Assembly: GCA_041652555.1 (NCBI GenBank)
Contig: JBAZHE010000001.1
Location: 66,847-130,846 of the forward strand
Source of the DNA: Patescibacteria group bacterium
GTDB lineage: Bacteria > Patescibacteriota > Patescibacteriia > Patescibacteriales > WJLG01
DNA: 64,000 nucleotides
Direction of reading: 5' to 3'
Made by a program: the position numbers and the translations under genes. The notes below the pieces were generated by a model. That model searched no databases. It was not told the DNA's origin and worked only from the letters and a program-made list of their open reading frames with translations. Shown here in pieces: positions 3,535-57,277 of this stretch (positions are counted from its first letter, which is position 1; each line of letters starts with the position of its first letter).

Positions 3535-4530
3535 TTAGATTATTTCCCAGCCGGTTTCTGTTTTAATAATACTTCCGTTTAATCGGAAGGCGGCGGCTTT
3601 TTTGTGGCCGCCGCCACCTAGTTTTTCGGCTAAGAGGGCGACGTTGATTTCGGGGAGTTTTGATCTTAAGCTTCCACGAACCACTCCTTTTTCTTCCTCT
3701 CTTAAAAATAAAGAGCCTTTTATTCCGTCTAAGTTGGTTATAATATCAGAGATAGCATCAAAGGCGCTATCTTCACCAAATTCTTTCTTTAGCTCAACAA
3801 CTTCCTCGTAAGTGAAAACTGAGCAAACTAAGTCGTATTTTTCATTGATGTATAGTTTTTCTAAAGCACGACCGATTATTTTCATAGCAGCGACTGATTT
3901 GCCTTCGTTGTTGCGCTTAATAATTTTGGGCATAGCCGCGCCGCGTAATAAAAGAGCTGAGGAAATTTTTACAGTTTCTTCGTTGACTGAACTGAAAAGC
4001 AAATTGCCGGTGTCAGTCATTATTCCGGCCAAAAGGCAATTGGCAGCTTTTTGCCCGATTTGAATATTATTGACAGTGAAAAAAAGATAAATAATTTCTG
4101 CGGCCGAAGAATGTTGGGGCAGGCGGATTTCCAGGTCGGAATAATTATCGGTTGGCGGGTGATGGTCGAATTCTAAAATAGTCTGATTTGATTTTTTTTG
4201 GACGATTTCATCAGCCAAACCGGTGCGCGTCAGAGCGCTACAATCAACTATAATAATTAAGTCAAAAGAAAAAAAATTAAATTTTTTTTTAGAGGTTATT
4301 TTTTTAAAATTCGGCAGAAAAGAAAAATGTTCCGGTGCTTGGTCGGCACAGAAAAGGTGGTAATTTTTACCAAGCTTATCTAGTAAGAGTGACAGAGCGC
4401 ACATTGAAGCTAGCCCGTCGCCGTCCGGCCGGATATGGGTGGCGACTAGGATGTTTTTCGCACTGCGAATTTTTTCTAGCGCTTGTTGAAATTTTTTAGT
4501 TAGGATTTCTTCGTTCATTTTTTGTGTCAT
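3535..4530 (-). CDS. nrnA: DHH/DHHA1 phosphoesterase (NrnA-like oligoribonuclease/pAp phosphatase)
   Basis: DGDGLAS, EFDHHPP and GGGGHKKAAAF motifs. An alternative start (MNEEIL, ATG complement ending at 4518) would sit outside the repeat element. Confidence 0.8.
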   Translation of the reverse strand: MTQKMNEEILTKKFQQALEKIRSAKNILVATHIRPDGDGLASMCALSLLLDKLGKNYHLFCADQAPEHFSFLPNFKKITSKKKFNFFSFDLIIIVDCSALTRTGLADEIVQKKSNQTILEFDHHPPTDNYSDLEIRLPQHSSAAEIIYLFFTVNNIQIGQKAANCLLAGIMTDTGNLLFSSVNEETVKISSALLLRGAAMPKIIKRNNEGKSVAAMKIIGRALEKLYINEKYDLVCSVFTYEEVVELKKEFGEDSAFDAISDIITNLDGIKGSLFLREEEKGVVRGSLRSKLPEINVALLAEKLGGGGHKKAAAFRLNGSIIKTETGWEII

Positions 4531-4596
4531 GCTGGCGAAGGCTGGTATCCAGTTTTACATAAGGACTATGGATCCCGGCCTTCGCCAGGATGACAC
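4524..4596. repeat. dRS3/NIME-like palindromic element, divergent copy (a)
   Basis: gtgtcatGCTGGCgaagGCTGGTatccag - 17 nt - ggatCCCGGCcttcGCCAGGatgacac. The left and right halves are mutually complementary. Confidence 0.7.
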
Positions 4597-10103: not shown

Positions 10104-10955
10104 TTACAATAAGTCTTTAATTTTATCAAATTGCGTGACAGCGACTTTAGTATAAATTTGGGTTGTTTCCAGGCGTTCGTGTCCGAGTAAGGATTGGATA
10201 TAGCGAATATCTAGACCACTTTCCAAGAGGTGAGTGGCGAAGCTATGTCGGAAAGAATGAGGGGAGACCGGTTTATTTAAGCCGGCTTTTTTTGTATTTT
10301 GACTGACAATCGCTTGGATTGTTCGTGTTGTTAGACTGCCTCCGCGCATTGATTCAAAAACATATTCCAGCGGTTTGAATTCAGCTAAATATTTTTCAAT
10401 ATTTCTTAAAACAACCTTAGAAATAATTGTAACTCTATCCTTGGCACCTTTTGCGCCCTTGAGGTGAATAATCTTGCGATTAAAATTGATGTCATTAATT
10501 TTCAAGGAAACAACTTCACTGACGCGCAGGCCAGAACAGTAGAGTATTTGAATGATTAGTTTGTGCTTAATATTGTTGCAGGCATTAATAATATATAAAA
10601 TTTCTTTTTTAGAAAGCACGACTGGTAGTTTTTTGTCTTTTTTGGCACGTGGGAGGTTGAAGAAAAATTTACGATAAAGGATTTTTTCAAAATAAAATTT
10701 CAAAGCACTATAAGCGGTGTTTAAGGTGGAAGAAGAAAGTCCTTTGTCGCATAAAGATTCCAAATAATTTCGAATATGCCCATTTGTGATTTCTTTGGGG
10801 TTTTTACTTGCAAAATTCAATATTTCAGTGATATAATGCAGATAGGATTTGATAGTTTTTTGGCTAAATTTACGCAACTTCATTTCTTGTTTTAGCCCAA
10901 AAATCGGATCTTTGCTTAAATATTGATAGTTTTCTTGTAAAAAGTTTCCATTCAT
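10104..10955 (-). CDS. Tyrosine site-specific recombinase (Xer-like, SAM-like N-terminal domain); candidate cassette recombinase
   Basis: Catalytic set: R in SGLRVSE, K in KGAKDR, HSFRH, LGH, Y in QIYTKV. 283 aa. About 58 residues lie between the KDR and HSFRH boxes, so there is no IntI-type insertion. Confidence 0.9.
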   Translation of the reverse strand: MNGNFLQENYQYLSKDPIFGLKQEMKLRKFSQKTIKSYLHYITEILNFASKNPKEITNGHIRNYLESLCDKGLSSSTLNTAYSALKFYFEKILYRKFFFNLPRAKKDKKLPVVLSKKEILYIINACNNIKHKLIIQILYCSGLRVSEVVSLKINDINFNRKIIHLKGAKGAKDRVTIISKVVLRNIEKYLAEFKPLEYVFESMRGGSLTTRTIQAIVSQNTKKAGLNKPVSPHSFRHSFATHLLESGLDIRYIQSLLGHERLETTQIYTKVAVTQFDKIKDLL

Positions 10956-11008
10956 ATCTTTATTATGATTAGAAAATTATATTAATATTTTAACTAATTT
11001 AAAATAAA
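10921..11008. repeat. Direct repeat copy 1 (recombinase 5' codons plus upstream region)
   Basis: tattgatagttttcttgtaaaaagtttccattcat...ttttaactaatttaaaataaa recurs at 11694..11781, roughly 80 percent identical by eye. Confidence 0.8.
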
Positions 11009-11094: not shown

Positions 11095-11376
11095 ATGATA
11101 AAAAGTTTTAAATCCAAAGAGGCGGAGAAGATTTTTAACCGAGGATATTCTTTAAAACTTCCGTCCGATATTCAAAGAACGGCCCTACGCAAATTATCAA
11201 TGATTCAAGCGGCTATCGCTATTAATGATTTACGGATACCGCCAGCTAACCATTTAGAGCTATTAAAAGGCGATAAGTGTGGTCGGTACAGCATTAGAAT
11301 TAATGATCAATGGAGAATTTGCTTTGTTTGGCAATCGGGGGATGCCTATGAAGTTGAAATAGAAGATTATCATTAA
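11095..11376 (+). CDS. higB: HigB toxin (RelE/ParE superfamily, plasmid maintenance system killer)
   Basis: 93 aa with the typical HigB pattern (FKSKEAEKIF...HLELLKGDKCGRYSIRINDQWRICF). Toxin-first order, with HigA downstream. Confidence 0.88.
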   Translation: MIKSFKSKEAEKIFNRGYSLKLPSDIQRTALRKLSMIQAAIAINDLRIPPANHLELLKGDKCGRYSIRINDQWRICFVWQSGDAYEVEIEDYH

Positions 11377-11390
11377 AAAATTACAACAAT

Positions 11391-11693
11391 ATGATAAAGA
11401 AAATACAGCCAATTCATCCAGGTGAAATTTTGCAAGAGGAGTTTTTACTACCTTTTAAGCTTAGCCAGTATCGCCTGGCTAAGGATATTGCCGTGGCTCC
11501 AATCAGAATTAGTGAAATAATCCGCGGTTCGCGTGCCATCAGTGCTGATACTGCGTTGCGTTTGGGAAAATACTTTAATGTTTCGCCGGAATTTTGGCTA
11601 AATTTGCAGTCGCACTATGAGCTAGCTGTGGAAAGTGAGGAGTTAAGTGGAGTTCTAAAAAATAAAGTTAAGGTTTTTGAATTCGCTGTTTAG
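11391..11693 (+). CDS. higA: HigA antitoxin (XRE-type HTH)
   Basis: HPGEILQEEFL...LAKDIAVAPIRISEIIRG...TALRLGKYF, a HigA-family HTH. Confidence 0.88.
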   Translation: MIKKIQPIHPGEILQEEFLLPFKLSQYRLAKDIAVAPIRISEIIRGSRAISADTALRLGKYFNVSPEFWLNLQSHYELAVESEELSGVLKNKVKVFEFAV

Positions 11694-11781
11694 TATTGAT
11701 GGTTTATTGTAAAAAAATTTCCATTCATACTCCAGTATGATTAGAAGTTTGTATAATAATTTTAACTAATTTTAAAATAAA
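11694..11781. repeat. Direct repeat copy 2, including a 12-codon remnant of the recombinase 5' end
   Basis: The minus strand reads ATGAATGGAAATTTTTTT... (MNGNFF..., stop after 12 codons). Starts right at the higA stop codon. Confidence 0.8.
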
Positions 11782-11790
11782 TAACAACAA

Positions 11791-11829
11791 CTTCGCATAT
11801 ACCTTGTTCTACGAAATAAATTTTTTATC
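11791..11829 (+). other. Array-proximal junction: solo right arm (L'-like plus GTT box plus extended arm) of an attC-like site
   Basis: cttcgcatatacctt-GTTCTACG-aaataaattttttatc. The outer 24 nt match the reverse complement of 12587..12610 at 22/24 positions. Confidence 0.65.
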
Positions 11830-11962
11830 TAGTCGGTAATTTTAAGCTTAGTGATTTGAATGGTGACAGAAATTTTAATTTTTTTTATTAATTCAATAGG
11901 GGAAATAAGGAGTTTTTTCTGCTCTCGGAAGTCGCAGAAAAAATAAGTTATCAAAATTATTT

Positions 11963-12100
11963 ATGAATAAAACGTGGCATTTAAAAAATAAAATTCCAGC
12001 CAAAGCAACATTGGAGCAACGAATAGATTGGCACAAAAATCATCAAAAGTATTGTGCGTGCCGAGAGGTGCCGAAAAGTTTATTAAAATATTTTAAATAA
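11963..12100 (+). CDS. Small Cys-containing protein (45 aa), below the ORF-track cutoff
   Basis: MNKTWHLKNKIPAKATLEQRIDWHKNHQKYCACREVPKSLLKYFK, preceded by AAGGAG plus a hairpin leader. Lies 16 nt upstream of the VOC gene. Confidence 0.5.
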   Translation: MNKTWHLKNKIPAKATLEQRIDWHKNHQKYCACREVPKSLLKYFK

Positions 12101-12116
12101 ATTAAACAACAATTTT

Positions 12117-12476
12117 ATGATTAAAGATTATGACAATTTTTTCTTGCCCGTGAATAGTCTGGATGAGGCTAAACTGTTTTACGGCCAGACACTTGGTCTT
12201 TCTGTGAAATTTGATTTTTCTGATGCGGGGATGACTGCTTTTAAAGTCGGTGACCAAGAGCCGGCAATCATCGTAAAAGATATTAAAAAATTTCCCGACG
12301 CAAAAGTAACTACATGGTTTGTGGTGGATGATGTTCTGATTGAGTACAAAAATCTTAAAGAGAAAGGAGTTTCTTTTTTATCAGAACCATTTGAAATTTA
12401 TACTGGTTTGGCTGCGGAATTTGAAGATCCATTTGGCAATAGATTGGGAATTACCGACTATTCAAAGAAAAAATAA
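12117..12476 (+). CDS. VOC/glyoxalase-bleomycin-resistance family protein
   Basis: 119 aa with the single beta-alpha-beta-beta-beta module pattern (FYGQTLGL...FEDPFGNRLGI). Confidence 0.8.
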   Translation: MIKDYDNFFLPVNSLDEAKLFYGQTLGLSVKFDFSDAGMTAFKVGDQEPAIIVKDIKKFPDAKVTTWFVVDDVLIEYKNLKEKGVSFLSEPFEIYTGLAAEFEDPFGNRLGITDYSKKK

Positions 12477-12482
12477 TAAGGA

Positions 12483-12533
12483 GTTTTGAAAAAATGGAAT
12501 TCACCCCTAACCCCTCTTCCATTTTTTTAAAAC
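12483..12533. repeat. Cassette 3' hairpin (GTTTTGA...TCAAAAC stem, conserved 17-nt loop)
   Basis: gttttgaaaaaatggaa / ttccatttttttaaaac around the loop ttcacccctaacccctc. Confidence 0.75.
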
Positions 12534-12586
12534 AAAAAATTAAATTTTCTTAGATGCAGTCTCAAATTTAGTTTAACAAAAATCGA

Positions 12587-12748
12587 GATAAAAAATTTAC
12601 ATCGTAGAACAAGGAATATCTGGTTCAATAATTTTTCAATATAGATTACAATAAGGAATAAAAAATTATTTCACCCATATTTTTGCTCCGCTAACGCTGC
12701 GCAAAAACATCAGATATTCCTAATAGTTGTCTGAAATATTTTTTTGTC
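12587..12748 (+). repeat. attC-like site J2 (162 bp)
   Basis: R''-like cgtagAAC (AAC 12608..12610), inner arm aaggaatatctg, loop of about 88 nt, cagatattcct, then GTTgtctg (GTT 12726..12728). Confidence 0.7.
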
Positions 12749-12832
12749 TTTAGCGGTAATTTAAAATTTTGGTGCATTGAACAAAGACGAAAATTTGATT
12801 TTTAATTTATTTAAAGAGGGGTAAAAAGGAAT

Positions 12833-13417
12833 ATGTTTCAATATATAGTTTTAATCGGAGCGGTCGTGCAGTTGGTTGGTGTATTTGTTTATATTCGAGC
12901 AACTGTTCGTGGCGAAACAAAACCGAATAGAGTCACTTGGTTAATGTGGTCTGTGGCGCCATTGATTGGATCTGTTGCAGCTTTTTCTGACGGCGTTCGT
13001 TGGGCGGTGCTTCCAGTTTTTATGTCTGGTTTTGCGCCACTGCTTGTTTTTATTGCTTCTTTTGTAAATCCCAAATCATATTGGAAGCTTGAAAAATTTG
13101 ATTATGTTTGTGGAGCTTTTTCAATTTTGGCATTAGTACTTTGGGGGATTACAAAAGAACCATTGATTGCGATTATTTTTTCAATCGCCAGTGATGGATT
13201 TGCGGCAGTGCCAACTATTATTAAATCTTGGAAACATCCAGATTCTGAATCCGTCGAAGCTTACACTACTGGGTTGTTCAACTCATTAACAAGCTTTTTT
13301 GCACTGAGAACATTTGGTATTTCAGAATTGGCCTTTCCAATATATTTAGTTTTGGTAAATTCGTCATTGATTGCCGCTGTTTATAAAGGGCGATTGAAAA
13401 AAATAATCGCAAAATAA
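12833..13417 (+). CDS. Multi-pass membrane protein, unknown function (cassette ORF)
   Basis: 194 aa with about 6 hydrophobic helices and an AAAGGA SD. Confidence 0.7.
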   Translation: MFQYIVLIGAVVQLVGVFVYIRATVRGETKPNRVTWLMWSVAPLIGSVAAFSDGVRWAVLPVFMSGFAPLLVFIASFVNPKSYWKLEKFDYVCGAFSILALVLWGITKEPLIAIIFSIASDGFAAVPTIIKSWKHPDSESVEAYTTGLFNSLTSFFALRTFGISELAFPIYLVLVNSSLIAAVYKGRLKKIIAK

Positions 13418-13420
13418 GGA

Positions 13421-13471
13421 GTTTTGAATTTTTGGCATTCACCCCTGACCCCTCTGCCAAAAATCCAAAAC
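13421..13471. repeat. Cassette 3' hairpin, second copy
   Basis: gttttgaatttttggca / tgccaaaaatccaaaac around the loop ttcacccctgacccctc. The stem sequence covaries relative to the other copies. Confidence 0.75.
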
Positions 13472-13523
13472 AAAAATCAAATTTTCTTTTAGAATAACCA
13501 AAGTTTGTGCCAATAAAATAGAA

Positions 13524-13743
13524 GACAAAAAAATACATCAGACAACACGGCACATGCGGTTCAGAAATTTTGCGCAATTATAATTCAAGGTATGCAAAAT
13601 TTCTTCTCCCAAATTGCGCTGACGATATGGCAAATTTGGTGATATAATCAAGTAAAGCGATAATTAACAAGTTCAATCAATAATCCACGGCGCAACTTCG
13701 CATGTGCCGAAACGTTATACGCAATTCAAAAAATATTTTTCTG
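13524..13743 (+). repeat. attC-like site J3 (220 bp)
   Basis: cagacAAC (13544..13546), inner arm cggcacatgcgg, loop of about 130 nt containing TGaTATAAT, then cgcatgtgccg and GTTatacg (13714..13716). Confidence 0.7.
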
Positions 13744-13865
13744 ATAATAAGGAGTTTTGATAGGCAAAAAATAAGAATAAATTTGTTTTTTATTTAATTT
13801 AACAGGGGAACAAGGTGTTTTCTCCGCTCCGCCACAAAAACGATTTATTAATTTACATTTGAAAT

Positions 13866-14507
13866 ATGGCGTCAGAAAATTTTGAATTGAACCAAAAACC
13901 GGAAGTAAGCATTAATTTAATAGAGAGAATCGAAAAATTAGAAAAGATTAAAACTCCAGAAGAATTATTGTCGTTCATGAAAAAGAATATAAATTATGGT
14001 TTTATTGGTAAAGACGACGATAAAGTATATTCTCCTCGGCAAGAAGGCTGGGGTGTAGGAAAACAACCGGAAGCAAGATTACAAAGTCCTGAAGAACTTC
14101 TGAAAAGTGGTTATGGGGCTTGTTGGGAACAGACGGATTTTGAAAAACAATGGTTTGCGAAAAATAATTTTGAGTTTAAAACCCTCCTTTTGATGTTTGG
14201 AAAAGATATCAGTCAAAAAAATCCAGCCCATACGTTGTTAGCATATAAAAAAGACGATAAATGGCACTGGTTTGAAAACACACTCGATAAATATAGCGGA
14301 ATTTATGAATTTGATGATTTAGAGGATTTAATTGAGTATGCCAAAACAGTACTTATAAATAATGCTTTTAATAATGGGGCTACAGAAAACGATATTAAAG
14401 AATATAAATTGTACGACTATGATATGCCAGCATATGGCTGTAGCACTGATGAATTCATTGGGAAAATAAAATTAAATTCTAGAAATCAGGAAAGAAAAGG
14501 AAAATAA
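13866..14507 (+). CDS. Hypothetical protein with a possible transglutaminase/papain-like Cys-His core
   Basis: GYGACWEQTDF ... HTLLAYKKDDKWHWFENT. The C/H/polar spacing resembles a transglutaminase-like fold, but the assignment is weak. Confidence 0.6.
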   Translation: MASENFELNQKPEVSINLIERIEKLEKIKTPEELLSFMKKNINYGFIGKDDDKVYSPRQEGWGVGKQPEARLQSPEELLKSGYGACWEQTDFEKQWFAKNNFEFKTLLLMFGKDISQKNPAHTLLAYKKDDKWHWFENTLDKYSGIYEFDDLEDLIEYAKTVLINNAFNNGATENDIKEYKLYDYDMPAYGCSTDEFIGKIKLNSRNQERKGK

Positions 14508-14600
14508 AGGAGTTTTGGAAAAAAGGAATCCGTTATTGTATTTTTCGAAAGATCGAAATCATGATAAAATATAGATAAAGTCGAACTAATCTCAATATTC

Positions 14601-15434
14601 ATGACAAAGAAACAAAAAATAAAAGTTGAAGGTATTGAAATAGTCACTTTTACCAAAGATAATAGCGATTATATTTCTTTAACCGATATTGCAAAACATA
14701 AAAATTCAGAGGCCGGCTTGGTTATTTCCCATTGGCTAAGCACTCGTTTTGCCATTGAATTCATGGGGATATGGGAAAAAATGAATAATCCCAATTTTAA
14801 AGTTACTGAATTCAGTAACTTTAAAAATCAAAGCGGCGCCAATGGTTTTGTATTGTCTGTCCAGCAATGGGTCAATAAAACTAGCGCTATTGGAATTTTT
14901 GCCACAAGAGGGCGCTATAATAGCGGTACTTTCGCTCACAAGGACATTGCCTTTGAATTTGCTTCTTGGATTTCAGCGGAATTTAAGTTTTATCTCATCA
15001 AAGAATTTCAGCGATTAAAGGAAGATGAAAATAACAGGCAAAAGTTAGAATGGAATCTCCAGCGAACACTGGCAAAAATCAACTACAAAATTCATACCGA
15101 TGCCATAAAGGAGAAATTAATCCCCCTTGAATTAACCAAGGAACAGATTAATATGGAATATGCCAGTGAAGCGGATTTGCTCAATGTTGCATTATTCGGA
15201 ATAACCGCAAAAACGTGGCGAGATCAAAATAAAGAATTAGATGGAAACATTCGAGATTATGCCTCAATTGAACAGTTAGTGGTTCTGTCTAATCTTGAAA
15301 GTATAAACGCATTGTTAATTCGCGAAGGATTTTCCACTGAAGATCGGATTCAAAAATTAAATAGCACCGCGATAATTCAGATGAAATCGCTTTTAATAAA
15401 CACTGAAATAAAAAAATTGGAATCGCCAAAATAA
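14601..15434 (+). CDS. KilA-N domain-containing protein
   Basis: The N-terminal 130 aa match the KilA-N pattern (YISLTDIAK...W...FAHKDIAFEFASWIS), followed by a coiled C-terminal half. Confidence 0.8.
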   Translation: MTKKQKIKVEGIEIVTFTKDNSDYISLTDIAKHKNSEAGLVISHWLSTRFAIEFMGIWEKMNNPNFKVTEFSNFKNQSGANGFVLSVQQWVNKTSAIGIFATRGRYNSGTFAHKDIAFEFASWISAEFKFYLIKEFQRLKEDENNRQKLEWNLQRTLAKINYKIHTDAIKEKLIPLELTKEQINMEYASEADLLNVALFGITAKTWRDQNKELDGNIRDYASIEQLVVLSNLESINALLIREGFSTEDRIQKLNSTAIIQMKSLLINTEIKKLESPK

Positions 15435-15446
15435 AAACAATAAGGA

Positions 15447-15497
15447 GTTTTGAAAAAACGTAATTCACCCCTAACCCCTCTTCCGTTTTTTCAAAAC
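15447..15497. repeat. Cassette 3' hairpin, third copy
   Basis: gttttgaaaaaacgtaa / ttccgttttttcaaaac around the loop ttcacccctaacccctc. Confidence 0.75.
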
Positions 15498-15550
15498 AAA
15501 AAAATCAAATTTTCTTATACGTAAAGCAACGCCAGCTCAATAAAAACCAA

Positions 15551-15711
15551 GATAAAAAATTTACATCGTACAACAAGGAATATCTGGTTCAATAATTTTT
15601 CAATATTATTTATAATAAGGAACAAAAAATTATTTCACCCATATTTTTGCTCCGCTATCGCTGCGCAAAAACATCAGATATTCCTGACTGTTAGGCGTAA
15701 TTTTCACTTTT
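15551..15711 (+). repeat. attC-like site J5 (161 bp) ending in the canonical core GTTAGGC
   Basis: 15551..15685 differs from 12587..12721 at about 7 of 135 positions. Identity stops just before GTTAGGC (15690..15696). Confidence 0.75.
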
Positions 15712-15736
15712 AAGAAGTCGCCTTTAATAAATACAT

Positions 15737-16405
15737 ATGATTTACTTAAAACAATTAATCATCATTATTCCCGCCTTTGCTGTTCTATTGTATCTAACAA
15801 CTGGATACAAGATACTTAGGCCATTTCGTAAAAACCAAATGAAAGAATTGGCGGAAAAGCTAAATCTTGAATTTGTTGGAAATGAAAAACGCAGTTGGAA
15901 AGAACGATTTTTTAGCTATTCTGTTAAAAAAAATATTATTCGTGGAGAATACAACAATAAAAAAATTGAAATTTTTGACTTTGATTCAATATTGAAAAAT
16001 GCTGTAAATCCGATTACCAACGCTGTAATGACCTATTATTATGGGAAAAATCCAGTCCATATCACCTATATAAATGGGAAAATATATAAAGATAAATATT
16101 TACCATACCTTAACATTAATAAAATTGAAAAATTGATAAAAGATGAAATTTCGTTAACCGAATATGATAAAATATTTTTTAACAAAGGTGTATTTCTGCT
16201 GACTTTATTAACATCACTTTGTATAACTTCAGTAATTGGATATTATTTTTATGCGTTTTATTCGGTTAGTCTAACAAAAATTTTAATTTTTTTAGTGCCA
16301 ATTAGCTTAATAGTTGCATATTTCTGCTACAGAATAGCTAAAAAATCTGGATACAAGGTTTTAATAAAAAATGATCCAAGAGAAGTGGCGACTTCTAAAA
16401 AGTGA
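15737..16405 (+). CDS. Membrane hypothetical protein (cassette ORF)
   Basis: 222 aa with an N-terminal TM and two C-terminal TM helices. No motif recognised. Confidence 0.6.
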   Translation: MIYLKQLIIIIPAFAVLLYLTTGYKILRPFRKNQMKELAEKLNLEFVGNEKRSWKERFFSYSVKKNIIRGEYNNKKIEIFDFDSILKNAVNPITNAVMTYYYGKNPVHITYINGKIYKDKYLPYLNINKIEKLIKDEISLTEYDKIFFNKGVFLLTLLTSLCITSVIGYYFYAFYSVSLTKILIFLVPISLIVAYFCYRIAKKSGYKVLIKNDPREVATSKK

Positions 16406-33500: not shown

Positions 33501-33529
33501 TGTCATTCCTGCGGAGGCGGGAATCCAGC
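33501..33529. repeat. Solo half of the dRS3/NIME-like element, copy (b)
   Basis: gtgtcattcctgcggaggcgggaatccag, just after the rpsI stop. Confidence 0.7.
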
Positions 33530-33564
33530 CATTATTTTTTATCGTCTATTTCGTTTATATATTC

Positions 33565-36229: not shown

Positions 36230-37795
36230 ATGAAAAGGAGGTGGATAATATTTTTTTCTTGCTGGTCGTTTGCCTTGGGTATTGCTATCGCCTCATTTTT
36301 ACCGCAAAGATTTTTGCTGTTTGATATATATTTTTTTGCCATCGCTATAATTTTTGGTTTAGTCGCGTTTTTAATTCCCTCTAAAAAGAGGGGTGGCGCA
36401 GTACTCTGCGACGGGGTGTGTCGTGTTAAGAATCAAAGCAATTTCAAGCGAGTCGTTTTGTTATTGCTGGCTTTTTTGTTTTTGGGAATTTGGCGTTTAG
36501 CTATTTCTTTTCCTGATAATTCGCCAGATAAAATTTGGTATTATAACGGAGAGAATTTAGAAATTACCGGCATTGTTGCGAGTGAGCCGGTTAATAAAGA
36601 AAAAACTCAGCGTCTGGAAATAAATGTTTTAAATATTAATCCCCCTCTAGAAAGAGGGGTGCCCGTACTCGGGCGGGGTGTGTCGAGCGTTACCAACAAA
36701 GCTGTTTCAGGAAGTATTCTCGTCTCCGTGCCAATTTATCCTGAATATTTTTACAGCGATGTTATAAAATTTCAATGCGAAATAAAGTCGCCCGGCGTGA
36801 TTGAAGATTTTGATTATGGTCGTTATCTCGCAGCAAAAAATATTTACTCAGTTTGCTATAGTCCTAAATTAATTTTATCTTATAAAGAAGGGGTGGAAAA
36901 AGGCGTGGGGCTAAACATAAAAAAATCTTTACCTTTGGAGTTTATTTGGCGTCCGATATTTTCTTTGCGCAAATTTTTTCGTTCCACTATTGAATTGGGT
37001 TTAAAAGAACCCGAGGCCGGATTAGTAAAAGCTTTTATTTTAGGCGACTCCACTGCCATTCCGGACGAGCTTAATAATTCTTTCCGTCAAAGCGGTCTTT
37101 CGCATATTGTGGCGATTTCCGGAACGCATATCACTCTAATGGTTGGAATGTTTTTCTTTTTATTGTTGGGAATAAATTTAAAACGACGCCAAGCTTTTTA
37201 TTTATCAATTCCCTTAATAATTTTTTATATCACCCTGGCTGGTTCGCCAGCTTCGGCAGTGCGTTCGGGGGTGATGGGATTTTTGGTTCTTTTGGCTTTG
37301 CATGTTGGACGCCTGAATCGTTTAGATTATTCTCTAGTTTTGTCTGGCGCAGTTATGCTTTTGGTTAATCCGAAATATTTAATTGCTGATGCCGGATTCC
37401 AGCTATCATTTTTGGCAGTTTTGAGCATGGCTTATTTGTACCCATTTTTTGATAATCGTCTTAAACCTTTTTATGAAAAAGCCCCTAAGAAAATTAGGGG
37501 AGTGGTAAAAGTTATTTGTCAAGCCTTTGCCTTAACAATCGCCGCGCAAATATTTACTTTGCCGATTTTAATTTTTAGTTTTCGCCAAATTTCTTTTATC
37601 GCACCATTTTCAAATATTTTAGTTCTTTGGATTTCTCCATTTTTAATGGGTGGAGCGTTTATCGGCATCGGTTTGTCTTTACTAATTCCTGTCGTCGCTC
37701 CATTTTTCTTTCTACCGACCGGACTAGTGGCTAAATATTTAATAGCTGTAGCCGAAATTTGTGCCACACTACCTTTCGCGTATTGGAAGTTTTAG
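36230..37795 (+). CDS. comEC: ComEC/Rec2-family competence membrane protein
   Basis: Multi-TM protein with the motif QSGLSHIVAISGTHITLM. ATG at 36230 (the ORF-track TTG is at 36206). Carries two in-frame REP-like inserts. Confidence 0.85.
   Translation: MKRRWIIFFSCWSFALGIAIASFLPQRFLLFDIYFFAIAIIFGLVAFLIPSKKRGGAVLCDGVCRVKNQSNFKRVVLLLLAFLFLGIWRLAISFPDNSPDKIWYYNGENLEITGIVASEPVNKEKTQRLEINVLNINPPLERGVPVLGRGVSSVTNKAVSGSILVSVPIYPEYFYSDVIKFQCEIKSPGVIEDFDYGRYLAAKNIYSVCYSPKLILSYKEGVEKGVGLNIKKSLPLEFIWRPIFSLRKFFRSTIELGLKEPEAGLVKAFILGDSTAIPDELNNSFRQSGLSHIVAISGTHITLMVGMFFFLLLGINLKRRQAFYLSIPLIIFYITLAGSPASAVRSGVMGFLVLLALHVGRLNRLDYSLVLSGAVMLLVNPKYLIADAGFQLSFLAVLSMAYLYPFFDNRLKPFYEKAPKKIRGVVKVICQAFALTIAAQIFTLPILIFSFRQISFIAPFSNILVLWISPFLMGGAFIGIGLSLLIPVVAPFFFLPTGLVAKYLIAVAEICATLPFAYWKF
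36373..36423 (+). repeat. REP-like element R1, in-frame inside comEC
   Basis: ccctct-aaaa-agaggg, then cgcag-tact-ctgcg, then acggggtgtgtcg. Translated as PSKKRGGAVLCDGVCR. Confidence 0.75.
36638..36685 (+). repeat. REP-like element R2, in-frame inside comEC
   Basis: cccctct-agaa-agagggg, then gcccg-tact-cgggc, then ggggtgtgtcg. Translated as PPLERGVPVLGRGVS. Confidence 0.8.
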
Positions 37796-37844: not shown

Positions 37845-39335
37845 ATGATTTATGTTAATAAATTTAGAATAATTTGGATAATTGCTTTAACAGCCATGGT
37901 TTTTGTTTTGGCCTGGTTAAAAATCGTTCCGACCGGTAAAATTACCTATTTTAATAATAGCGACTTTATTAGTAATTTAACGCCAGTTGAGAGAATGAAT
38001 GTTGATAAAATTATTGGTGACCCTGTTTATTTTACTTTGCGTGTGCCTCGTCGTTTTGAGAGCGCTAAGTTGACTATAAAATTTAAAAATGAAAGTGCTT
38101 TGCCAATTATAGAAGCTGGGGTTTTGATTGATAAAAAAGTTTGGAACTATGATTTAAAGCCTTTGGACAATTCTATTTTGGATAATTTGATAGGTAAATG
38201 GAATTCTGTTCGCTCTGGAGATTTGCTTTTATTGCAGAGAGAGAAAAAGTTTAAAAGTGTAGAAGAATTTTTGAAAAATCCGCCAGTGAGTGATAAAATC
38301 GCTGCTTATAATTATTCTCTAGAACAAAATTTTTTATTACCAGATTATAAAACTTCAAAAGAAGAAATGACTTTGTGTCGTCCGCTTCAGGGTGCTTATC
38401 AATTTTATACATATATTAAGGATGAAGATTTGTCGTTTGATTTTGCTTTACAGGATTTGAATAAAAATGATGACGAAGATATAGTTGACGCTTTGGTTTA
38501 TTATAAGGATCAAGAAATATACAAAGAAACCTTACCAGATAATAATAGTAATAGTAGAAATTTAAAATTATTTTTAACCAATTTGCCAGAGGGAGTTTAT
38601 AAAATAAGTTTGCGCGCCAATAATGATATTGTGACGCGCACAATAACTACGTCACAATCAAAAATTACTTTTATAAATAAAGTCGCCTTGGCTGATACGC
38701 CCGAAGTTTCGTGCGGTCGAAATTTGTTTACCAATAGCCGAGTGGCGCAATTTCAAACAATTTTATCCAATAAGCTCGGACAAATTAAAATTACCCAGGC
38801 AATTAAATCCCCTCTAGAAAGAGGGGTGCATCAGTACTCTGAGGCGGGGTGTGTCGGCGTCTGCACACAGCAAGAAGTTAATTTGAACGAAACCTATAAA
38901 CTTTTTTCTACTGGATGCCAGAACAGGGCAGTGCCCTGTTCCTACGAGACCTTACCGTCATTTTCTGAAATTATTATGCCATCTGACGGGATAACTGTAA
39001 CTGGCGACGGTTTATTTTCTTTTTCCCTTGAACAATTTTTTAATCCGGAAATAAAAAAAGTTGACGAGAATTTTGATCCTGACCGAGAAGATGTAGATTT
39101 TATTATTGCTAAATATACACCACCAACACTCGATGGTGAATGGAAGATTGCCACCGCTGATTTTGATTTAACAAACGCTTATAAAGAATTTAATAAACAT
39201 AGTTTTTTGATTTCTATTCCAGGACTCCGCGCTGAAGATGGAACTTTGGATGGAGTAGAAGTTGGAGAGGTTAAAATTGAGCTATCTGGAGTAAGTTTGT
39301 TTGATAAAATATTTAAAATGATAAATGATAAATGA
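37845..39335 (+). CDS. Membrane-anchored hypothetical protein (496 aa)
   Basis: N-terminal TM segment and a long extracytoplasmic region. Carries the in-frame REP-like insert R3. Confidence 0.65.
   Translation: MIYVNKFRIIWIIALTAMVFVLAWLKIVPTGKITYFNNSDFISNLTPVERMNVDKIIGDPVYFTLRVPRRFESAKLTIKFKNESALPIIEAGVLIDKKVWNYDLKPLDNSILDNLIGKWNSVRSGDLLLLQREKKFKSVEEFLKNPPVSDKIAAYNYSLEQNFLLPDYKTSKEEMTLCRPLQGAYQFYTYIKDEDLSFDFALQDLNKNDDEDIVDALVYYKDQEIYKETLPDNNSNSRNLKLFLTNLPEGVYKISLRANNDIVTRTITTSQSKITFINKVALADTPEVSCGRNLFTNSRVAQFQTILSNKLGQIKITQAIKSPLERGVHQYSEAGCVGVCTQQEVNLNETYKLFSTGCQNRAVPCSYETLPSFSEIIMPSDGITVTGDGLFSFSLEQFFNPEIKKVDENFDPDREDVDFIIAKYTPPTLDGEWKIATADFDLTNAYKEFNKHSFLISIPGLRAEDGTLDGVEVGEVKIELSGVSLFDKIFKMINDK
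38806..38856 (+). repeat. REP-like element R3, in-frame inside the 37845 gene
   Basis: aatcccctctagaaagaggggtgcatcagtactctgaggcggggtgtgtcg. Translated as SPLERGVHQYSEAGCV. Confidence 0.8.
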
Positions 39336-39340: not shown

Positions 39341-39525
39341 TAGGGAGTATATTTAAAGAATTATTTTATGCTTTAACTGTTTTCTTGGTGGTTTTAGCGG
39401 TTTTAGAGTTGCTTTTTTCTCGGATGGTGTTGGCTTATATTAATTTAAGCTATTTGTTGCTCGTCTGGCTGATAATTGGTATAATTTTATTAGTAATATC
39501 AAAGAAAAAGTTGTCATCCCCGTGA
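39325..39525 (+). CDS. Small two-TM membrane protein (hypothetical)
   Basis: 66-aa ORF with two hydrophobic helices. Its last codons run into repeat element (c). Confidence 0.4.
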   Translation: MINDKLGSIFKELFYALTVFLVVLAVLELLFSRMVLAYINLSYLLLVWLIIGIILLVISKKKLSSP

Positions 39526-39594
39526 AAACGGGGATCCAGAATTTTTTACAGCAACGCTCGAACACTGGATTCCCGCCTACGCGGGAATGACACA
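39512..39594. repeat. dRS3/NIME-like element, copy (c)
   Basis: tgtcatCCCCGtgaaaaCGGGGatccag - 27 nt - ctggatTCCCGCctacGCGGGAatgaca. Confidence 0.85.
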
Positions 39595-45616: not shown

Positions 45617-45691
45617 TGTCATTCCCGTAAAAACGGGAATCTAGGATTCTGCGTGATAAAGCTGGATTCCCGCCTTCGTGGGAATGACACA
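45617..45691. repeat. dRS3/NIME-like element, copy (d)
   Basis: tgtcatTCCCGtaaaaaCGGGAatctag - 19 nt - ctggatTCCCGCcttcGTGGGAatgaca. Ends 6 nt before the murJ ATG. Confidence 0.85.
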
Positions 45692-53308: not shown

Positions 53309-53389
53309 TGTCATCCCCGCGAAGGCGGGAATCTAGTAAGTTTACAAAGTGCTCGCACTCTGGATTCCCGCTTTCGCGGGAATGACACA
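53309..53389. repeat. dRS3/NIME-like element, copy (e)
   Basis: tgtcatCCCCGCgaagGCGGGAatctag - 27 nt - ctggatTCCCGCtttcGCGGGAatgaca. Ends 8 nt before the rnhA ATG. Confidence 0.85.
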
Positions 53390-57198: not shown

Positions 57199-57277
57199 TG
57201 TCATCCCCGCGAAGGCAGGGATCCAGAAATTTGTTTAGTACTTGCACTCTGGATTCCCGCCTTCGCGGGGATGACAA
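57199..57277. repeat. dRS3/NIME-like element, copy (f), inside the por operon
   Basis: tgtcatCCCCGCgaagGCAGGGatccag - 24 nt - ctggatTCCCGCcttcGCGGGGatgaca. Confidence 0.85.

Follow-up and report, generated by a model that had tools for sequence, protein, structure and literature searches.

A covarying hairpin with a conserved loop lies between stop codon and attC-type site in integron-like cassette arrays of Patescibacteria

The DNA analysed here is a 64,000-nucleotide stretch from a Patescibacteria group bacterium (assembly GCA_041652555.1, contig JBAZHE010000001.1, positions 66,847 to 130,846 of the forward strand), which is referred to below as the window and numbered from its first letter. 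It contains an array of integron-like gene cassettes, and three of these carry, at or just past the stop codon of an open reading frame (ORF), a hairpin with a covarying stem and a sequence-constrained loop. The hairpin is real and widespread, and apparently it has not been described before. We tentatively take it to be the stop-codon-proximal stem-loop of a "long-form" attC scaffold that is found in a subset of such cassettes. With the same reserve we favour a role at the level of DNA, in which it would act as a distal "clasp" that stabilises the folded long attC.

The three hairpins lie on the forward strand at 12483..12533 (hairpin 1; arms 12483-12499 and 12517-12533, loop 12500-12516), 13421..13471 (hairpin 2; arms 13421-13437 and 13455-13471, loop 13438-13454) and 15447..15497 (hairpin 3; arms 15447-15463 and 15481-15497, loop 15464-15480), and score 85.4, 90.7 and 84.9 bits, respectively, against a covariance model of the motif. 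These are exactly the coordinates at which an earlier reading, made from the letters without database searches (the sequence-only reading), had placed them, and both sequence and fold confirm it. Each has 17-nt arms with one mismatch (G.T, A.C or T.C), and the predicted folds reach -15 to -16.4 kcal/mol, with z-scores of -2.4 to -4.1 against shuffled sequences. The 17-nt loop is TTCACCCCTRACCCCTC and follows the pattern TTCACCCCT(A/G)ACCCCTC, which occurs three times in the 64 kb and nowhere else, as against 0.10 occurrences expected (up to three mismatches, both strands). In the same window only hairpins 1 to 3 score high with the covariance model (85-91 bits), the next best match of 24 bits being the reverse strand of one of them, and the motif is confined to the cassette array.

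The stem is entered through a TAAGGA(G) prefix, and the stops of the preceding ORFs (TAA at 12474-12476, 13415-13417 and 15432-15434) are followed by GGAG and the stem 3, 0 and 9 nt later. In hairpin 1 the prefix TAATAAGGA (12474..12482, forward strand) includes, at 12474-12476, the stop codon of the glyoxalase-family ORF 12117-12476; in the second copy the TAA of the prefix is the own stop of ORF 12833-13417, and hairpin 3 follows the KilA-N ORF 14601-15434. The truncated version noticed earlier after the stop at 14507 is genuine as well. At 14505..14529 on the forward strand, a stop TAA (14505-14507) and AGGA lead into a 5′ arm (14512-14528) and one loop base, past which the sequence is unrelated; the loop, the 3′ arm, the trailer and the attC have been deleted. 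This remnant scores 14.4 bits and is predicted to form no fold. It stands between the two ORFs of cassette 4 (13714-15697), 13866-14507 and 14601-15434, and it seems that two former cassettes were fused by a deletion reaching from the loop of the hairpin into the cassette that followed.

Copies beyond the window were sought with a pattern scan (GTTTTG-N9-13-TCACCCCTNACCCCT) of one genome per species, which matched at least 119 contigs. Among the matches listed, about 85 are true copies with TAAGGA before and a complementary arm after, the remainder being CCTCACCCCT-type simple repeats. Most true copies are found in metagenome-assembled genomes (MAGs) labelled as candidate phyla radiation (CPR)/Patescibacteria. 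Some bins are labelled as other bacteria or as DPANN archaea, which reflects either transfer or mis-binning. With 24 distinct 17-bp copies as input, a covariance model identified 113 copies in 85 sources at E <= 1e-4, again among the matches listed. All of these counts cover MAGs and metagenome contigs and take each copy irrespective of shared ancestry. Per locus, all hairpin copies lie on one strand and at cassette-like spacing.

Since the three window copies are too few, covariation was judged on 104 distinct copies from other contigs. In this set 94.6% of cells are paired and 16 of the 17 stem pairs show changes on both sides. None of 500 shuffles matched the observed values, and pairing fell to 37-65% when the partner was slid by one to three columns. 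The loop is constrained in a different manner: its flanks TTCACCCC and CCCCTC are near-invariant in 69 unique hairpins (the exceptions being TTCACTCC in two and a shortened CCCTC in three), while its centre is variable in sequence and length (TAA, TGA, TTA, TG, G, CAG, TTTAATT and others). The linker between the two CCCC tracts thus ranges from 1 to 7 nt, and both tracts are kept. The prefix AATAAGGA is at least 90% conserved at several positions (83 copies). The selected structure that the sequence-only reading had argued for, with covarying stems and a conserved loop, therefore stands. A covariance-model search and a covariation test, of the kind that it had called for, gave strong support for covariation in the larger set, and, rather than being abundant elsewhere, the copies are restricted to cassette arrays wherever their context could be checked.

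No Rfam 15 family matches the hairpin in the window, where three tRNAs were the only matches; a search of 11650-15750 in E-value mode gave chance-level matches only, and one of 145 kb of related arrays gave none. A phage element was excluded by a search of 2.9 million viral contigs, which held one match, itself a cassette with attC. In our literature search the loop sequence appeared in no paper, and no paper found gave a description of integron-like arrays of this kind from CPR bacteria. Coding explanations were also rejected: a small ORF across the hairpin would have ATG, TTG and ACG at the same position in the three copies and an in-frame TAA in one frame, and the loop lengths of 15, 16, 17 and 21 nt do not keep to multiples of three. 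The FtsK-orienting polar sequence (KOPS, GGGNAGGG) and a two-tract G-quadruplex or i-motif in the loop were judged on sequence alone, and both would leave the stem and the conserved flanks TTCA and TC unexplained.

Additional hairpins accompany the main one at some loci. A degenerate tandem hairpin with a related 21-nt loop (GGGGCAA-TTCACCCCTTTAATTCCCCTC-TTGCCCC) lies ~65 nt upstream of it in loci L033, L039, L045, L056, L067, L073, L084, L117 and L118, and starts right after the stop codon. A different tandem hairpin is found upstream in L009, L038, L051, L071, L074, L085, L088 and L107, with a conserved C-rich loop of its own, TTCCCTCCCCTTAAACCCCTTCC, on stems that covary (AAATAAAAGGCAAAAA or AAACAAACAGTCAAAAA).

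The position of the hairpin is defined on both sides. A same-strand ORF of at least 70 aa ends no more than 150 nt upstream in 101 of 108 copies; of 78 long ORFs, 36 use the motif's own TAA as their stop codon, and almost all end within 15 nt of it. On the other side follows an attC-type site, with the AAC of its R'' box 67-85 nt (mode 73) or 115-140 nt downstream. A strict, if crude, attC finder was positive in 49 of 84 cases, its background on random 520-nt windows of these loci being 6%, and several of the cases that it missed visibly contain an attC-type site with more mismatches.

Three attC-type sites, the only ones in the window array, follow the hairpins at a distance of ~74 nt on the forward strand. 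They are imperfect palindromes with AAC/GTT cores and perfect 10-11-nt L boxes, located at 12603..12733 (R'' CGTAGAAC, L'' AGGAATATCTG, L' CAGATATTCCT, R' GTTGTCTG), at 13539..13721 (R'' CAGACAAC, L'' CGGCACATGCG, L' CGCATGTGCCG, R' GTTATACG) and, as the last of the array, at 15567..15697 (R'' CGTACAAC, R' GTTAGGCG; 91% identical to 12603-12733). Box spacing is asymmetric, 1 nt versus 4 nt, the first site having one unpaired nucleotide between the boxes on the 5′ side and four on the 3′ side. Each R'' is complementary to the GTT box at the 5′ boundary of its own cassette. GTTCTACG at 11806..11813 (forward strand), the left boundary of cassette 2 and attI-side crossover box, when reverse-complemented matches the R'' of this cassette, CGTAGAAC, exactly (8/8), and the corresponding pairs of the following cassettes, CAGACAAC/GTTGTCTG and CGTACAAC/GTTATACG, match at 8/8 and 7/8 positions. 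A further 19 cassettes in other loci have 8/8 R-box matches. This match is the signature of recombination at G|TT in integron cassettes, and the hairpin is thus not the attC but lies between the stop codon and the attC. That the hairpin is the attC itself was rejected on this boundary signature, which puts the real sites downstream, and on the GTT...AAC order of the hairpin, which is opposite to that of attC.

The attC sites and their surroundings have some further features. A good sigma-70-like promoter match (CTGACG, 18 nt, TG-TATAAT) at 13619-13648 is situated inside the centre of attC 13539-13721 and is directed toward the next cassette. A second conserved loop motif, TCCGCTCCGCTAC-like, is seen in a TTTTTGC...GCAAAAA hairpin within the attC centre (window 12680-12707) and in a small leader hairpin (GTTTTC...GAAAAC; window 13823-13835), both of which recur in many loci. 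Directly after the attC R' box, L030 (minus strand, about 300-560) and L113 (minus strand, after 5292) share a conserved element of ~250 nt that starts with the palindrome GTTATCTAAAACCTCGCGAGCTCGGTTTTAGATAA, contains GGCTCGCGTGCGGTGGCTTTCCGCCC and has no Rfam match.

In the long form of these cassettes, the trailer consists of the stop codon, the hairpin, an arm of 70-130 nt and R'', and the leader consists of R', an arm and a G-rich box (G-box). The 5′ leader, after R', is an inverted repeat of the cassette's own 3′ trailer. In the window, the trailer arm of cassette 2 (12534..12602, forward strand, from hairpin 1 to R'') is complementary to its leader arm 11814-11897 with a score of 77 versus 36 +/- 5 for shuffles, and that of cassette 3 (13472..13538, forward strand) to its leader arm 12734-12815 with 84 versus 29 +/- 5; in the fused cassette 4 (15498..15566, forward strand) the complementarity is weak (40 versus 28 +/- 5). 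The match is cassette-specific; in cassette 2, for instance, AGATAAAAAATTTACATCGTAGAAC is complementary to GTTCTACGAAATAAATTTTTTATCT, and in cassette 3 AAGACAAAAAAATACATCAGACAAC to GTTGTCTGAAATATTTTTTTGTCTT. Among the 19 cassettes of other loci that were validated by R boxes matching at 8/8 positions, the own leader fits the trailer better than the neighbour's leader in 16. In the predicted fold of the circular junction of cassette 3, the hairpin is kept and the trailer is zipped to the leader up to the hairpin base. The attC palindrome of these cassettes hence extends out to the stop codon.

The leader side of this inverted repeat ends at the G-box, in which GAGGGG and AAGG(T/A)G are separated by 4-6 nt (consensus GAGGGG-N-AAGGWG). 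The ends of the box complement the conserved ends of the loop (CACC/GGTG and CCCCTC/GAGGGG), and the predicted loop/G-box duplexes, at -11 to -21 kcal/mol, are stronger than the mean of shuffled boxes. The leader unit of cassette 2 (11898..11943, forward strand) comprises the G-box AGGGGAAATAAGGAG (11898-11912) and a hairpin, TTTTTTCTGC/GCAGAAAAAA (11913-11943), that scores 18.5 bits with the hairpin model. In cassette 3 the G-box GAGGGGTAAAAAGGAA (12816..12831, forward strand) stands directly before the ATG at 12833 and gives -16 kcal/mol with the loop. The unit of cassette 4 (13804..13841, forward strand) has the G-box AGGGGAACAAGGTG (13804-13817) and the hairpin GTTTTC-TCCGCTCCGCCAC-AAAAAC (13817-13841; 12.4 bits). 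The hairpin leaders that had been noticed earlier before the ORFs at 11963 and 13866 are accordingly real and make up the second half of the leader unit. AAGGAGTTTTGA at 13749 is part of the conserved leader arm and not a hairpin remnant.

On the hairpin strand, 28 G-boxes were counted in 579 kb, as against 3 in 957 kb of control loci, an enrichment of ~15-fold. Within 25 validated cassettes, a regular expression found a G-box in 4 of the 8 that carry the hairpin and in none of the 17 that lack it, and three further hairpin cassettes have GAGGGG variants recognised by eye. Most long ORFs of the window have AT-rich upstream regions (e.g. AAAATTTTATG) and no Shine-Dalgarno (SD) sequence, AAGGAG and GAGGGG boxes being essentially confined to the cassette scaffolds.

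The scaffold is optional. Only 6 of 22 validated cassettes in the same arrays carry the hairpin, a fraction that is not a population estimate since the loci were selected for at least one hairpin, and many cassettes have 10-40 nt from the stop to ACATC-R''. Intermediate-form cassettes have arms of ~50 nt, again complementary to the own leader, and in all forms the ORF runs up to the outer edge of the arm. The occurrence of short-form cassettes without the scaffold in the same arrays makes the hairpin an accessory.

Based on these observations one may picture how the hairpin could act. In single-stranded cassette DNA, the R-box helix would continue outward for ~100-150 nt, up to the ORF, and the hairpin would form a side branch at the end of this long stem. 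The invariant loop (top strand CACCCC-N-CCCCTC) could then pair with the leader box GAGGGG-N-AAGGWG and close the base like a clasp. The partner might be the own leader in the excised circle or the leader of the next long-form cassette in the array, both being possible since the arms are cassette-specific and the loop and box universal. This pairing would stabilise the recombination-competent fold of the long attC, most likely that of the bottom strand as in classical integrons, and it would be an enhancer or accessory and no requirement. Such a clasp would explain why an invariant loop and box stand beside arms and stems that covary from cassette to cassette. It is also close to one suggestion of the sequence-only reading, that of an accessory of the recombination module.

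Whether the structure is used as DNA or RNA may be reflected in its mismatches. In RNA helices that are under selection, G.U pairs are normally in clear excess. The stems contain 18 G.T and 26 A.C mismatches, and the leader and trailer arms, read on the top strand, contain 68 A.C and 35 G.T where composition predicts 1.13:1. An excess of A.C on the top strand places the wobble pairs on the bottom strand, the one that classical integrons recombine, and the arm mismatches thereby suggest that folding of the bottom strand is favoured. This excess of bottom-strand G.T and the boundary signature are indirect evidence that the recombinase may act on folded bottom strands in attI x attC and attC x attC recombination. 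The long-form cassette at L030 (minus strand, 754-1489) carries a 244-aa ORF opposite to the strand of leader, hairpin and attC, and here the orientation of the scaffold relative to attC is kept. Ordinary host genes are mostly without SD sequences. The points from wobble pairs, reversed ORF and host SD usage are modest and carry no phylogenetic correction, and all of them lean towards DNA. The points for RNA are the SD-like look of the box and the anti-SD-like look of the loop; an RNA stability element, as had been proposed from the letters, finds no support in the wobble statistics of stems or arms.

A number of observations weigh against the clasp. The skew of A.C over G.T comes from noisy, non-independent alignments, the reversed ORF is a single example, and an SD-like G-box together with a tight fit of hairpin and stop codon would also be expected of an element acting in mRNA. 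The case for loop/box pairing consists of complementarity, mirrored position and co-occurrence and nothing further: some duplexes with shuffled G-boxes are of comparable energy, complementarity does not extend to the centres of loop and box, and no covariation between loop and box was seen, because both are invariant. A G-box is present at the expected 258-320 nt in only 6 of ~43 downstream neighbours. Short- and medium-form members of these arrays manage without the hairpin, so that any contribution to recombination must be non-essential. Finally, the invariance of the loop could reflect a protein partner instead.

The main rival to the clasp is an anti-SD element in mRNA, which we regard as possible, although rather unlikely. 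The C-rich loop in the 3′ untranslated region (UTR) would pair with the SD-like box in the leader of its own cassette or of the one that follows, mask ribosome binding and silence the cassette genes, and the hairpin would also protect the 3′ end. The loop does look like two anti-SD sequences in tandem (UCACCCCU, ACCCCUCU). SD-like motifs, GAGG and AAGGAG, are present in the box, which in cassette 3 immediately precedes the ATG. The duplex energies given above compare with about 0 to -7.5 kcal/mol for ordinary host leaders, a single ORF lies between box and loop in long-form cassettes, and the hairpin begins 0-15 nt past the stop codon in most cases. Precedents are known in the UCCCC motif of the icaR 3′ UTR and in the C-rich loops of staphylococcal small RNAs. 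This explanation is difficult to reconcile with stems that have no G.U excess (18 versus 26 A.C) and arms that are skewed the opposite way, or with the mostly SD-less genes of the host. In many leaders the box lies as far as 40-70 nt upstream of the start codon, the spacing of the element is fixed to attC and not to the ORF, and in the reversed-ORF cassette the scaffold keeps the orientation of attC.

The second alternative, which we consider unlikely, is that the loop is a sequence-specific protein site displayed by the stem and read by the recombinase, by an accessory factor that binds single-stranded DNA or by a KH-type C-rich binder. Invariant loop flanks on freely covarying stems are the classic appearance of a displayed single-stranded site, and the retention of both CCCC tracts across a linker of 1 to 7 nt fits this explanation; yet no candidate protein was identified, and the complementary G-box in the same cassettes would be left unexplained. 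A further point in its favour is that the only protein common to the cassettes carrying the module is the recombinase. In the window this is a XerA-like tyrosine recombinase of 283 aa (10104..10955, minus strand), which is divergent from the array and presumed to be the cassette recombinase. It is, however, a minimal Xer-type enzyme without an extra DNA-binding domain, and the array-linked recombinases are 36-58% identical while the loop is near-invariant.

It is improbable that the hairpin is a transcription terminator, as the sequence-only reading had also suggested, or a 3′-end stabiliser of cassette mRNAs resembling repetitive extragenic palindromic (REP) elements. The stem is stable, stands immediately past stop codons (the 101 of 108 copies with a same-strand ORF end within 150 nt upstream) and at times has a related hairpin in tandem with it. 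The tail that follows is nevertheless A-rich (AAAACAAAAAA) in place of a U tract, the stem is AU-rich and closes a loop of 17-21 nt (17 nt in the window), and a terminator scan did not report the hairpin; a Rho-independent terminator, with its short G+C-rich stem and 3-8-nt loop, was rejected accordingly. Neither termination nor stabilisation needs a conserved loop, and the lack of a G.U excess counts here as well. Least credible is a functionless relic, in which trailer and leader would be the halves of an old palindrome of the REP or miniature inverted-repeat transposable element type that spread with the cassettes, the hairpin being kept by descent or gene conversion: leader and trailer do resemble diverged mirror copies, and near-identical trailers stand on unrelated ORFs in many contigs, but pairing is kept (16 of 17 pairs compensated), the loop is near-unchanged despite wide divergence of stems and arms and the leader mirror copy has lost the hairpin and kept the box, a pattern of purifying selection and not of drift.

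The clasp would serve an array with an unusual recombinase. The best NCBIfam match of the enzyme is XerA_Arch (249 bits, cutoff 220), and the integron integrase model TIGR02249 gives 205 bits, below its cutoff of 265 and split into two stretches. In the comparison with VchIntIA (2a3v), residues 184-235 are without counterpart and the IntI-specific additional domain (the I2 helix near patch III) is missing, as it is from all 7 array-linked homologues. This domain is regarded as necessary in the literature (PMC9668308). Lacking the feature that defines IntI, the system is here called integron-like and is not filed as an integron. RNase HII lies behind the recombinase ORF. To the right of the recombinase, the forward strand encodes HigB/HigA, the glyoxalase-family ORF, a membrane protein, an unknown ORF, KilA-N, further unknowns and a Fic/DOC protein, after which trxB follows on the opposite strand.

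The recombinase gene is divergent from the array in all nine arrays that have a homologue in reach (the window, 7 genome loci and L121). An attI-like TTCGCATATAAMCGA|GTT is clear in six of these, L102, L086, L077, L084, L121 and the window; counterparts in L094 and L011 are weaker, and L108 was left out of the comparison. In the first five the site is located 75-120 nt upstream of the recombinase start, and in the window (11780-11813) it lies after an inserted HigBA pair. The attI-like TTCGCATATAcc-GTT at the boundary of cassette 2 is conserved in other loci. The first 13 recombinase codons with their upstream bases (10916-10956) are repeated, at 78% identity, at 11689-11729 just after HigA, from which it appears that the HigB/HigA pair (11095-11693) was inserted between the recombinase gene and attI with a duplication.

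A general link of the hairpin with every XerA-like recombinase was ruled out, as only 1 of 80 metagenome loci with recombinase homologues has the hairpin, which therefore marks a sub-group. Metagenome homologues at L139 (4050-8150), L142 (5514-6307) and L153 (12280-19672) are ~40% identical and align without a large insertion. Some of the attC finder matches in these ranges are classical-looking short attC sites right after stop codons, without the hairpin, in arrays that are co-directional with and downstream of the recombinase gene; other matches are chance-like and lie inside coding sequence.

One may also speculate, with considerable doubt, that these arrays represent a distinct Xer-type "proto-integron" with an insert-less XerA-like enzyme and an attC palindrome that reaches from start to stop codon. 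The scaffold, a G-box leader and a C-loop trailer that each start with AATAAGGAGTTTT and abut the ORF, would then be a ready-made vector for ORF capture, and the hairpin with its element-supplied stop a fossil of cassette making. "Empty" scaffolds, with the G-box directly before the hairpin, were looked for and none were found.

The window holds other repeats as well. An unrelated family of paired hairpins, TGTCATCCCCGCGAAGGCGGGAATCCAG ... CTGGATTCCCGCCTTCGCGGGAATGACA, occurs at 4525-4595, 33501-33534, 39512-39592, 45617-45689, 53309-53387 and 57199-57276, and another repeat, a CCCCTCTAGAAAGAGGGG hairpin followed by GTG..CAGTACTCTG.G.CGGGGTGTGTCG, occurs at 36369-36423, 36635-36662 and 38802-38856. 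Between 22096 and 22519 lie three tRNA genes whose spacers are themselves repeated (74-79-nt units, TTCGAA-rich).

In the current view, the attC sites of integrons are read through their structure only and extend no further than the R boxes, and how genes turn into cassettes has long been asked. The large family of cassettes described here carries a much longer palindrome, which packs the ORF from leader to stop and has an invariant loop/box pair at its outer end, the element supplying the stop codon in about half of cases. The arrays are accompanied by a recombinase without a domain considered essential for attC recombination. If the clasp model is true, the hairpin adds a new accessory layer to attC folding; if the RNA model is true, it is a built-in silencer of cassette genes. 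In either case the motif is a cheap and specific marker for such arrays in the many genome bins that contain it, mostly CPR-labelled, and offers a concrete system for recombination by an insert-less Xer-type integrase.

Several known systems share some of these properties. Origins of HUH Rep proteins and the plasmid origin ssoA, which work as single-stranded DNA, likewise have an invariant loop on a stem that covaries, but the arrays have no Rep/HUH gene, no likeness to the nonanucleotide or CS-6 and no sign of nicking or priming. REP elements, bacterial interspersed mosaic elements and terminators are also stable hairpins within ~15 nt of stop codons, sometimes in tandem; the present hairpin has neither a GTAG head nor a U tract, its conserved loop is long, and it is linked to attC and confined to arrays. 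Palindromes mobilised by RAYT would also be dispersed through intergenic regions across a species, whereas in the 64 kb the present motif occurs in the array alone; no search aimed at RAYT genes was made. The icaR 3′ UTR and the loops of RsaE and RNAIII resemble it in presenting a C-rich hairpin-loop motif complementary to a G-rich or SD-like 5′ leader. These act in RNA with RNA-type pairing, whereas here wobble pairs, attC register and reversed-ORF orientation lean towards DNA.

The attP(+) hairpin of CTX-phi and the arrays of integrative mobile elements exploiting Xer (IMEX) at dif share with the present arrays a recombinase of the Xer family, a long palindrome that folds as a single strand to serve as its substrate, and the build-up of tandem elements next to the recombination site. 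They differ in that CTX-phi and IMEX are phage or island genomes that rely on the XerCD and dif of the host and are not built as single-gene cassettes with AAC/GTT boxes, and they have no known counterpart of the invariant-loop hairpin.

Integrons and their attC sites, e.g. the Vibrio cholerae repeats (VCRs), are different in three respects. The recombinase of the present arrays is without the IntI-specific additional domain. A classical attC starts at or just after the stop codon and ends at R', with, to our knowledge, no conserved sequence outside the R boxes, whereas here complementarity continues for ~50 to 190 nt further on both sides, and the long form has in addition a hairpin of 51 nt, whose invariant loop is matched by a complementary box in the leader. 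In other respects the likeness to integrons is extensive. In both, the sites are imperfect R''-L''...L'-R' palindromes with AAC/GTT cores and crossover at GTT, each cassette's R'' matches its own 5′-boundary box, and co-oriented, mostly promoterless accessory ORFs are lined up beside a divergent tyrosine recombinase gene and an attI-like site; folding of the bottom strand, as in integrons, is suggested here by the mismatch skew.

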